Source of the DNA: a virus | Lineage: Duplodnaviria; Heunggongvirae; Uroviricota; Caudoviricetes | Direction: 5' to 3' (one strand) | Virus record (IMG/VR): IMGVR_UViG_2645727901_000003 | Location: 1 to 38,370 of that record | DNA length: 38,370 nt | Shown: piece after piece, positions 14,087 to 14,771 of the stretch | Numbering within the stretch: position 1 is the stretch's first letter | How the letters are laid out: every line of letters begins with the position of its first letter | The notes under the pieces: model-generated | Database searches by the model: none | The model's input: only the letters and a program-made list of their open reading frames with translations | Told to the model about the DNA's origin: nothing | Made by a program: the position numbers and the translations under genes

Positions 14087-14098
14087 GTGACATGTCAC
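14087..14098. repeat. Palindrome GTGACATGTCAC, copy 1
   Basis: 12-bp perfect palindrome overlapping the TGA stop of the 14095..14391 gene. Confidence 0.6.
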
Positions 14099-14391
14099 GC
14101 TCTTTTCCTGAAGGATAGCCATTCGAAGAACGAAGACATCCCCCCGCACGCAATAGCAAAAACCAGGCCGCCAAAGAAAAGAAGCCCTGCCTGCCACCAT
14201 TCCCAACGCCATACGTCGACAGCGCCAACCATTCCAACAATGGAACCGACCAAAGGGATATAACTAACGATGAAAGCAATGGGTGCGGCCACTATCCAGT
14301 GCAGTCCCCACCACGATTCAAGACCAGCCATGATCGCAGCCAACTGAAAAAGACCAACAACTATGTAAACAATGAAACCAATAGCTTGCAT
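14095..14391 (-). CDS. Small inner-membrane protein (moron)
   Basis: 98 aa, three hydrophobic helices; ATG with AGGTGA Shine-Dalgarno. Confidence 0.55.
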   Translation of the reverse strand: MQAIGFIVYIVVGLFQLAAIMAGLESWWGLHWIVAAPIAFIVSYIPLVGSIVGMVGAVDVWRWEWWQAGLLFFGGLVFAIACGGMSSFFEWLSFRKRA

Positions 14392-14399
14392 GTGGTCAC

Positions 14400-14771
14400 C
14401 TATTTATTTTTAATCTTCTCATCCATGGCAAATTTTGTGGCTAATCTCTCACCATCAGATTTTAGCCTTTCTGTAAATTGCCGCTTACCATCTTGCGAAG
14501 AGTTTAAATAATATATATTCGACTCGGCGATCATTGGTATATATGACTCGCATGACACAACCGAAGCTTTTGATATGGAATCAACACTTTCTCCTGTCTT
14601 GGCATACTTTACAGCCTGCCCTTTTATGCATCCAAAGTATTCCATTGTATGCTTTTTAGAATCCTCCAATGTTTCTCCATTTTTAGGCTGAATCATTAAA
14701 GGTGATGTAGTATCAGCAGAAGCTTTTCCAACAAAAAAAATAAGAAGAGTCATTAATATAATTCTGTTCAT
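14400..14771 (-). CDS. Secreted/periplasmic protein (moron)
   Basis: 123 aa; signal peptide MNRIILMTLLIFFVGKASA; AT-rich. Confidence 0.5.
   Translation of the reverse strand: MNRIILMTLLIFFVGKASADTTSPLMIQPKNGETLEDSKKHTMEYFGCIKGQAVKYAKTGESVDSISKASVVSCESYIPMIAESNIYYLNSSQDGKRQFTERLKSDGERLATKFAMDEKIKNK

Follow-up and report, generated by a model that had tools for sequence, protein, structure and literature searches.

Why would a prophage carry small envelope proteins at the very end of the operon that encodes its ejection proteins? The question is raised by a stretch of 38,370 nucleotides (nt), IMG/VR virus record IMGVR_UViG_2645727901_000003, which was analysed at its full length and is called the window here. 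The window represents a prophage of the epsilon15-like (Uetakevirus-type) kind, and its late operon lies on the minus strand. Directly after its genes for ejection proteins of 180, 873, 568 and 848 amino acids (aa), just where the original prediction had placed them, stand two further genes, sp123 and tm98, whose products are predicted to reside in the periplasm and the inner membrane, respectively (Table 1). That prediction, made from the sequence alone, had read them as a pair of AT-rich genes closed by a bidirectional terminator, matching no recognised family and possibly acting in superinfection exclusion or lysogenic conversion. Comparison of related loci suggests another picture, in which sp123 and tm98 would be independent, interchangeable accessory cassettes occupying a hypervariable slot at the 3′ end of the ejection operon.

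A hypervariable slot behind the last ejection gene

We surveyed the slot in 71 fetched loci that share the C-terminus of the window's 848-aa protein at an identity of at least 86%. In all 70 loci whose contig continues past this point, a gene starts 1-4 nt after the stop codon of the 848-aa gene; in the one remaining locus the contig ends before the slot. The occupants belong to about 12 unrelated families, every one of them an envelope protein, and they range over soluble periplasmic proteins, lipoproteins and proteins with two, three or four transmembrane (TM) segments. Members of the sp123 family fill the slot in 14 loci, a 186-aa signal-peptide protein (phrog_11983) in 16, two-TM proteins of 64-68 aa in 18, a signal-peptide (Rap1a-like) protein of 118-129 aa in 8, a relative of tm98 at 58% identity in 6 and a 51-aa TM protein in 3. 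Five further loci hold single cases: a 160-aa lipoprotein and TM proteins of 108, 110, 113 and 131 aa. A strict windowed test for hydrophobic segments was passed by 60 of the 70 occupants, compared with 6 of 29 other genes of the window that served as controls, and the ten occupants that failed it carry Sec or lipoprotein signals that are short. Hypervariable as it is, the slot accepts envelope proteins only. That it is always filled, and by differing envelope proteins, suggests a defence or immunity locus. Our literature searches returned no description of an envelope-only hypervariable slot behind the gene for internal virion protein D (IVP-D) in epsilon15-like phages.

The slot is also filled in epsilon15 itself, where gp18, a 64-aa two-TM protein, starts in overlap with the gp17 stop and is followed by the operon terminator. 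In Klebsiella phage vB_KpnP_BUCT711 (OM816836), an apparent gap of 195 bp between the last ejection gene and the tm98 homologue is occupied by an unannotated open reading frame for a 57-aa two-TM protein (locus L001, 8528..8701, minus strand), with a TTG start and the ribosome-binding site (RBS) GGGGGA. The same 195-bp gap is found in phiv142-3 and in a copy borne on a Klebsiella IncFII plasmid (L098). Envelope genes may also follow one another in series, as in locus L039 (5905..6775, plus strand), where a 51-aa two-TM protein, a 107-aa lipoprotein (with the lipobox LSG/C) and a 103-aa member of the tm98 family stand behind the last ejection gene.

One occupant was unexpected. The Rap1a-like protein of 118-129 aa matches the Pfam family PF18602 with 48.7 bits (cutoff 27.7; E = 1e-12) and has a weak PDB match to Tai4. 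PF18602 represents immunity proteins of the sort known from type VI secretion systems (T6SS), directed against the Ssp1/Tae4 peptidoglycan amidase effector, and here such a protein lies within a phage structural operon. It does so in eight loci (L008, L009, L011, L012, L013, L020, L047 and L078; at about 5905..6290 in most).

Cassettes exchanged independently of the ejection proteins

The original prediction had treated sp123 and tm98 as a pair and had proposed to check their prevalence in related prophages. This fixed pairing is not borne out. In the survey, sp123 and a tm98-family gene occur together in 7 of the 71 loci, each occurs without the other in 7, and about 50 loci have neither; both are likewise missing from epsilon15. 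As most relatives do without both, the two genes are accessory and not essential. The seven co-occurrences exceed the 2.8 expected (Fisher p = 0.004), a difference of little weight given that the loci are not phylogenetically independent.

The edges of the exchanged DNA are sharp. Between the window and loci with other cassettes, DNA homology stops at 14755-14773, that is, at the stop codon of the 848-aa gene, and is found again from about 13840-13860, where the convergent Bro-N gene ends. Within this interval sp123, tm98 together with the terminator, and a gene for a 50-aa secreted peptide behave as separate modules.

More distant relatives keep the same address. In L080, L085, L086-88 and L090-94, the gene that comes next after the third large ejection gene encodes a relative of sp123 at 27-48% identity; the IVP-D of these prophages shows 97%, 52%, 49%, 25%, 22% or undetectable similarity to that of the window. 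Yersinia and Salmonella prophages have relatives of tm98 at 61% and 56% identity (L095 and L096), again right after the last large ejection gene. Similarity of cassette and similarity of ejection protein do not run together: L090 has an IVP-D 96.6% identical to the window's and an sp protein only 34% identical, whereas L085 repeats the sp-tm98 pair with the 8-nt spacing and shows 33% identity for sp, 95% for tm98 and only 22% for IVP-D. As distant relatives keep the slot despite diverged IVP-D, the cassette alleles are long-term residents of the slot that are not co-inherited with the phage's own ejection proteins.

We examined eight contexts of the sp family, and seven of them are behind phage ejection genes. 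The exception is a homologue at 60% identity in Sodalis sp. (L006, 6557..6925; GCA_051710445.1), which is encoded at the end of a contig of 7 kb, beside a Rep3 replication initiator and a RecT/DUF3799 recombination module, and may be part of a phage-plasmid.

Two conserved and largely unannotated envelope proteins

Both open reading frames stand exactly as they had been called, with ATG starts, Shine-Dalgarno sequences and low ratios of nonsynonymous to synonymous substitution (dN/dS), and both are genuine coding genes under strong purifying selection. The assignment of sp123 to the periplasm and of tm98 to the inner membrane also holds, as a prediction, on the Sec signal of the former, the three hydrophobic spans of the latter and AlphaFold2 models of both. 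Their exact sequences are present in assemblies of Salmonella enterica and other Enterobacteriaceae, always under the name 'hypothetical protein'.

sp123 starts 1 nt past the stop codon of the 848-aa gene (TAAtATG). Its signal peptide comprises residues 1-19 (nt 14715-14771), with the n-region MNR, the h-region IILMTLLIFFVG and then KASA/D; cleavage is predicted at the A-S-A/D motif of residues 17-19, and the signal character is kept across the family. The AlphaFold2 model has a mean predicted local distance difference test score (pLDDT) of 86.8, low at the N-terminus and above 90 over residues 31-120, where the mature domain is modelled as all-alpha. Among 19 divergent members of the family, C48 and C74 are the only invariant residues of the mature protein, and K55, Y56, E61, K113 and D117 are nearly invariant. 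A putative C48-C74 disulfide would probably staple the helical bundle. Comparison with orthologues gives sp123 a dN/dS of 0.09-0.18; the neighbouring 848-aa virion gene has 0.03-0.04. The gene stands out in base composition, with 34.9% GC and 30.6% GC at third codon positions against a window mean of 49.4% and about 55% GC in the genes for the internal virion proteins. The description as two AT-rich genes therefore suits sp123 and fails for tm98, whose GC content of 49.8% is that of the window.

A word-indexed search with sp123 found 22 clusters, all from Enterobacterales, and a dozen or so further secreted proteins, diverged and about 100 aa long, were gained from a profile search over 1.84 billion representatives. 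The top match of the profile search, a 2352-aa repeat protein with 40 partial matches, and a 583-aa repeat protein were set aside as repeat-amplified artefacts. sp123 had no match in Pfam, PHROGs, NCBIfam, PADLOC or the PDB, and PDB searches with the family profiles returned matches at chance level only (Tiam1, a copper ATPase, VP1). In tblastn searches with sp123 and two distant family members, nothing was found in 50,697 phage genomes; sp123 was likewise found in none of 72,556 plasmids. Foldseek comparison with BFVD gave nothing at E <= 0.001 for the model of sp123 or that of tm98. sp123 defines a small family left unannotated by Pfam, PHROGs, NCBIfam and PADLOC, and here the earlier statement that no family is matched stands.

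It does not stand for tm98, of which residues 1-97 match positions 1-97 of the 98 in the profile of PHROG 3075 (E = 1.5e-52), a family with no annotated function. This unannotated PHROG was the only match in searches of Pfam, NCBIfam, PADLOC and PHROGs. The family comprises about 97 clusters, all from Enterobacterales, and is without a Pfam domain or an informative name. The matches of tm98 on plasmids are the same prophage type integrated in plasmids, or circular records of phage size. tm98 starts 8 nt past the sp123 stop codon. Its AlphaFold2 model (pLDDT 88.1) has helices at residues 2-28, 32-59 (with a kink at the invariant P46) and 65-97. The C-terminal tail (FRKRA) is the only net-positive segment, and by the positive-inside rule we therefore infer an N-out/C-in topology. 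tm98 carries an invariant W-x-W-W-Q-A-x-x-L-F-F-G motif and a glycine-rich second TM segment (Gly-zipper).

Close counterparts of tm98, at 94-96% identity, are encoded by Klebsiella phage BUCT711 and by the E. coli phages phiv142-3 and HEMP4. With copies that include L001, L003 and L085, dN/dS is 0.008-0.03, and tm98 is more constrained than the neighbouring 848-aa virion protein (0.03-0.04). Four pairs aligned out of frame are left out of the dN/dS values. Recent transfer was considered as the cause of near-identical tm98 in distant phages and was rejected, because synonymous sites are close to saturation (proportion of synonymous differences, 0.6-0.73). Such tight constraint suggests a conserved partner, perhaps one supplied by the host.

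Prophage setting and the neighbourhood of the slot

The ejection block of the window corresponds to gp14 to gp17 of epsilon15, and published analysis identifies epsilon15 gp17 as the homologue of T7 IVP-D (gp16). The 848- and 568-aa ejection proteins have no close counterpart among the 50,697 deposited phage genomes; their best match, at 52% identity, is in Stenotrophomonas phage BUCT708, and the sequenced Uetakeviruses reach about 25-28%. This type of ejection module is carried by 65 IMG/VR contigs and by 66 of 5,426 complete E. coli genomes, and is a common variant known from prophages only. In the lysis cassette, the two holins match Phage_holin_8 and Phage_holin_3_7, and the endolysin (8344..8823, minus strand) is a CHAP-domain protein (Pfam PF05257) for which a PDB sequence search gave no match; several related prophages have GH19 or lysozyme-type enzymes at this place. 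Phage amidases of the CHAP/NlpC-P60 type, such as this endolysin, might be a Tae4-like target of the Rap1a-like cassette, whose fetched loci stop short of the lysis genes.

Table 1. Features of the window, in order of position
Feature	Position	Strand	Remarks
Integrase gene	6243..7433		
Lysis cassette	7865..9521		Two holins, CHAP endolysin, DUF2514 Rz-like protein
Tailspike, 903 aa	9666..12377	-	Ends the variable region; counterpart of P22 gene 9 and epsilon15 gp20
c4 a1/b1 target	12903-12955	+	Rfam, near-threshold
isrK-like RNA	12916-12990	+	Rfam, 76 bits, above gathering score
C4-type antisense RNA	13015-13100	+	Rfam, 77 bits, above gathering score
Bro-N antirepressor-like gene	13140..13838	+	Part of an immI-like module between ejection genes and tailspike
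50-aa secreted-peptide gene	13907..14059	+	Convergent; phrog_14503 'membrane associated protein', moron category
GC-rich hairpin	14066..14085		Between convergent transcription units; closes the minus-strand late operon
tm98, 98 aa, predicted inner-membrane protein, three TM spans	14095..14391	-	ATG start, RBS AGGTGA
sp123, 123 aa, predicted Sec-exported periplasmic protein	14400..14771	-	ATG start, RBS GGGAAG
Internal-virion (ejection) block	14773..22203	-	
Last internal-virion (ejection) protein, 848 aa	14773..17319	-	phrog_684 'virion structural protein'; position of epsilon15 gp17
Internal-virion protein, 568 aa	17319..19025	-	phrog_3003; position of epsilon15 gp16
Internal-virion protein, 873 aa	19027..21648	-	SLT lytic-transglycosylase domain, residues 232-339
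T7 gp14-family (T7_gp14-like) internal-virion protein, 180 aa	21661..22203	-	First gene of the ejection block

Downstream of tm98, the late operon ends at a hairpin with an 8-bp GC stem (-18.1 kcal/mol, z = -3.1). The tail read on the minus strand is U6 and that on the plus strand is UUUGUG, a weak tract. In this hairpin the minus-strand late operon has a good intrinsic terminator and the plus strand a weak one, so that only half of the supposed bidirectional terminator is retained. Beyond it, on the plus strand, the product of the 50-aa gene has a signal peptide followed by about 27 aa of mature peptide with two cysteines, and two promoter-like sites precede the gene at 13838-13879. Its presence in related loci does not depend on that of sp123 or tm98, and as WP_000708858 it is found widely among E. 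coli prophages. The RNAs at 12903..13100, upstream of the Bro-N gene, look like an antisense control module of the P1/P7 immI type, at the place of P22 immI. In L003, L004, L098 and other related loci, the convergent strand between the slot and the tailspike carries accessory genes that differ from prophage to prophage, for example YafO-type and HicAB toxin-antitoxin pairs, DUF4760 and DUF2335 genes and one or two Bro-N antirepressors. The whole interval from the ejection genes to the tailspike is a hot spot of accessory genes.

Possible functions of the cassettes

What might such cassettes do? We tentatively favour a role in superinfection exclusion, in which sp123 and tm98 may act against the trans-envelope ejection conduit of incoming short-tailed phages. 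We favour it because of the positional parallel with P22, the precedent of Spackle and Imm in T4, the uncoupling of the cassettes from the phage's own ejection proteins and the diversity of the cassettes themselves. Exclusion or lysogenic conversion, as the original prediction had it, is the class of function best supported here, by the envelope-only slot, the P22-like layout and the Rap1a/Tai4 allele.

By sequence prediction sp123 is exported by Sec, cleaved after A-S-A19 and folded into a helical bundle in the periplasm, and tm98 is inserted in the inner membrane as three helices with a tryptophan-rich periplasmic loop. In the model that we propose, sp123 would bind, at the periplasmic step, a muralytic (SLT) or tube-forming ejection protein, much as Spackle acts on the gp5 lysozyme; the window's own 873-aa SLT protein illustrates a candidate periplasmic target for exclusion proteins. 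tm98 would act at the inner-membrane step, comparable to P22 SieA or T4 Imm, and may occlude a conserved host membrane partner, which we propose because its sequence is so extremely constrained. Expression would most likely come from the late operon, at induction and during lytic growth; the prophage might express the genes as well.

Several observations weigh against exclusion. Both genes have low dN/dS, tm98 extremely so, which does not bear the mark of an arms race with phage proteins that evolve fast. The slot is filled in every one of the 70 loci, and the phage itself could equally need a late envelope protein. The allelic Rap1a/Tai4 cassette points towards immunity to toxins over exclusion of phages. 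Neither in sequence nor in fold do sp123 and tm98 resemble SieA, Spackle, Imm-type PHROGs or PADLOC models. P22 sieA lies on the opposite strand with its own promoter, PsieA, whereas tm98 is co-directional with the late operon and no promoter was recognised for it. A consensus scan found no sigma-70-like promoter on the minus strand upstream of sp123 or tm98, although a weak promoter is possible, and both genes run in the direction of the late operon, close behind their upstream neighbours (at 1 and 8 nt). Expression in the prophage, which is the premise of lysogenic conversion, is therefore unsupported, and with no detectable promoter of their own the genes may be expressed late only. As for the marks of a moron, a shift in composition is seen in sp123 only, the terminator is present, and the consensus scan detected no promoter.

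A bolder version of the exclusion reading is doubtful as a whole. The locus would be an 'envelope defence cassette' in which at least a dozen unrelated families of periplasmic proteins, lipoproteins and inner-membrane proteins are swapped at a fixed breakpoint, the stop codon of the last ejection gene, with sp proteins as new periplasmic inhibitors of the podophage ejection machinery or its muralytic enzyme, tm98 as a new inner-membrane blocker unrelated to SieA that works through a conserved host partner, and a Rap1a/Tai4 fold recruited to this locus too.

Could the threat be bacterial rather than viral? It is conceivable, if unlikely, that the cassettes confer immunity to interbacterial toxins by lysogenic conversion, with periplasmic proteins such as sp123 directed against effectors that act in the periplasm, for example T6SS peptidoglycan hydrolases or bacteriocins, and the membrane cassettes against membrane-targeting toxins. 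The prophage would then shield its host from competing bacteria and not from phages, an idea we hold to be just as improbable. The protein matching PF18602 in the same slot of eight related loci speaks for this proposal; sp123 and Rap1a/Tai4 proteins are both small and exported and have conserved cysteines (the all-alpha fold being predicted for sp123 only), and strong purifying selection is consistent with a conserved target. An hhalign comparison of the sp family with the Rap1a-like cassette, however, gave a probability of 0.3%, so that homology between the two was rejected; PF18602 matched neither sp123 nor any of the 19 family members at E <= 1, and the sp family shows no detectable relation to any Pfam immunity family. 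Ejection genes precede sp in seven of the eight contexts, no T6SS or effector gene is close by in any of the eight, sp123 is absent from the plasmids searched, and the consensus scan found no promoter that would serve expression in the prophage.

A late role in the phage's own lytic cycle is likewise on the unlikely side. The proteins could time lysis, shield the cell from the phage's own ejection proteins or block ejection by progeny into the dying cell, and the cassettes could, with similarly small likelihood, be alternative solutions suited to different hosts. A slot that is filled in 70 of 70 loci, and by gp18 before the operon terminator of epsilon15, would fit such a need, as would the tight TAAtATG spacing and the lack of a detected promoter. 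tm98 moreover has the size of a class I holin, an N-out/C-in three-TM topology inferred for it and a Gly-zipper. Yet it has no holin match in Pfam or PHROG and lies outside the lysis cassette, which is already complete with two holins, a CHAP endolysin and an Rz-like protein. The occupants of the slot are non-homologous and reside in different compartments, which makes a single required function unlikely, and cassettes have been exchanged between phages whose ejection proteins are only 22% identical.

It is highly improbable that the genes are functionless passengers at a recombination hot spot: sharp mosaic boundaries, modules that come and go independently and the foreign base composition of sp123 would suit that idea, against which stand dN/dS values of 0.008-0.18 with synonymous sites near saturation, residues invariant across each family and the extreme bias of the slot towards envelope proteins. 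The least credible idea makes sp123 and tm98 minor parts of the virion or ejection apparatus that are packaged along with the internal virion proteins, an idea with their place in a structural operon as its sole support; it is very unlikely because a cleavable Sec signal exports sp123 away from capsid assembly in the cytoplasm and because both genes are missing in most relatives with the same virion genes, and the published injection apparatus of epsilon15 does without gp18.

Beyond the two genes themselves, we are interested in what would follow. If the exclusion reading is true, nature would have assembled at this locus a collection of unrelated proteins that inhibit the podophage ejection conduit, partly periplasmic and partly in the inner membrane, with which an ill-understood step of infection could be approached. 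The locus would also help to explain why lysogens of Salmonella, Klebsiella and E. coli resist therapeutic podophages, and would yield a simple annotation rule, namely to inspect the gene directly behind that for IVP-D. The Rap1a/Tai4 allele raises the possibility that prophages carry immunity to T6SS effectors at this slot too, and if such proteins were indeed recruited, anti-phage exclusion would be linked with immunity to interbacterial toxins. If a lytic-cycle role is true instead, there would be an unrecognised envelope requirement of ejection-protein production.

Comparison with known systems

Small phage envelope proteins beside ejection genes are already known, as in the case of P22 SieA. 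What appears to be new is that the sp123 and tm98 families are uncharacterised and, as far as sequence comparison reaches, bear no relation to any studied exclusion or immunity protein.

The nearest counterparts by position are in the Uetakeviruses, where epsilon15 gp18 and the proteins of PHROG 3075 and PHROG 29212 are uncharacterised small membrane proteins that hold the slot after the IVP-D homologue and before the terminator. Epsilon15 gp18 differs from tm98 in being a two-TM protein of 64 aa, and there is no sequence relationship between the two. The injection apparatus of epsilon15 has been described as gp4, gp20, gp15 and gp17/16. The Rap1a/Tai4 family (PF18602) supplies a second positional counterpart, a member filling the same slot in eight related prophages; like sp123 it is small, exported and provided with conserved cysteines, and both would be expected to bind an incoming periplasmic protein.

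T4 Spackle (Sp, gp61.3) inhibits gp5, the lysozyme of the virion; it is a periplasmic helical bundle of 75 aa with a disulfide bond. sp123 is likewise small, Sec-exported, predicted to be a compact alpha-helical bundle and provided with two conserved cysteines, and both phages carry a muralytic enzyme in the virion, which in the window is the SLT domain of the 873-aa protein. The differences are that mature sp123 would have about 104 aa, and that the Spackle gene is an early gene of a virulent phage and not adjacent to imm. No sequence or fold relationship was found between sp123 and Spackle (PDB 6X6O). Sp and Imm of T4 together form a set of a periplasmic and an inner-membrane protein, which resembles the combination of sp123 and tm98. 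Among membrane proteins, class I holins are similar to tm98 in size and in the three-TM, N-out/C-in topology proposed for it.

The most instructive comparison is with P22. Its SieA, which resides in the inner membrane, is a protein of 162-164 aa with three TM segments that blocks DNA injection, and escape mutations map to the C-terminal parts of gp16 and gp20. Induction raises sieA expression. SieA would act on the conduit of ejection proteins or, alternatively, by occluding a membrane partner of the host. Homology of tm98 to SieA was considered and rejected: the hhalign probability is 0.3%, and the FxRYPxEAxxFNK motif is absent from the tm98 alignment. tm98, at 98 aa, is also considerably shorter, and the phages belong to different lineages, P22-like and epsilon15-like. 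Like SieA, tm98 is predicted to be a small inner-membrane protein with three TM helices. sieA is found in one third of P22-like phages, in three types sharing less than 30% identity, of which type A has three TM segments and the others four; in the same way sp123 and tm98 occur only in a subset of relatives, in several very divergent types. The gene order of P22 is 7, 20, 16, sieA, immI (mnt, arc, ant, sar) and 9, and the window follows this same order, with ejection genes, small envelope genes, an antirepressor module and the tailspike.

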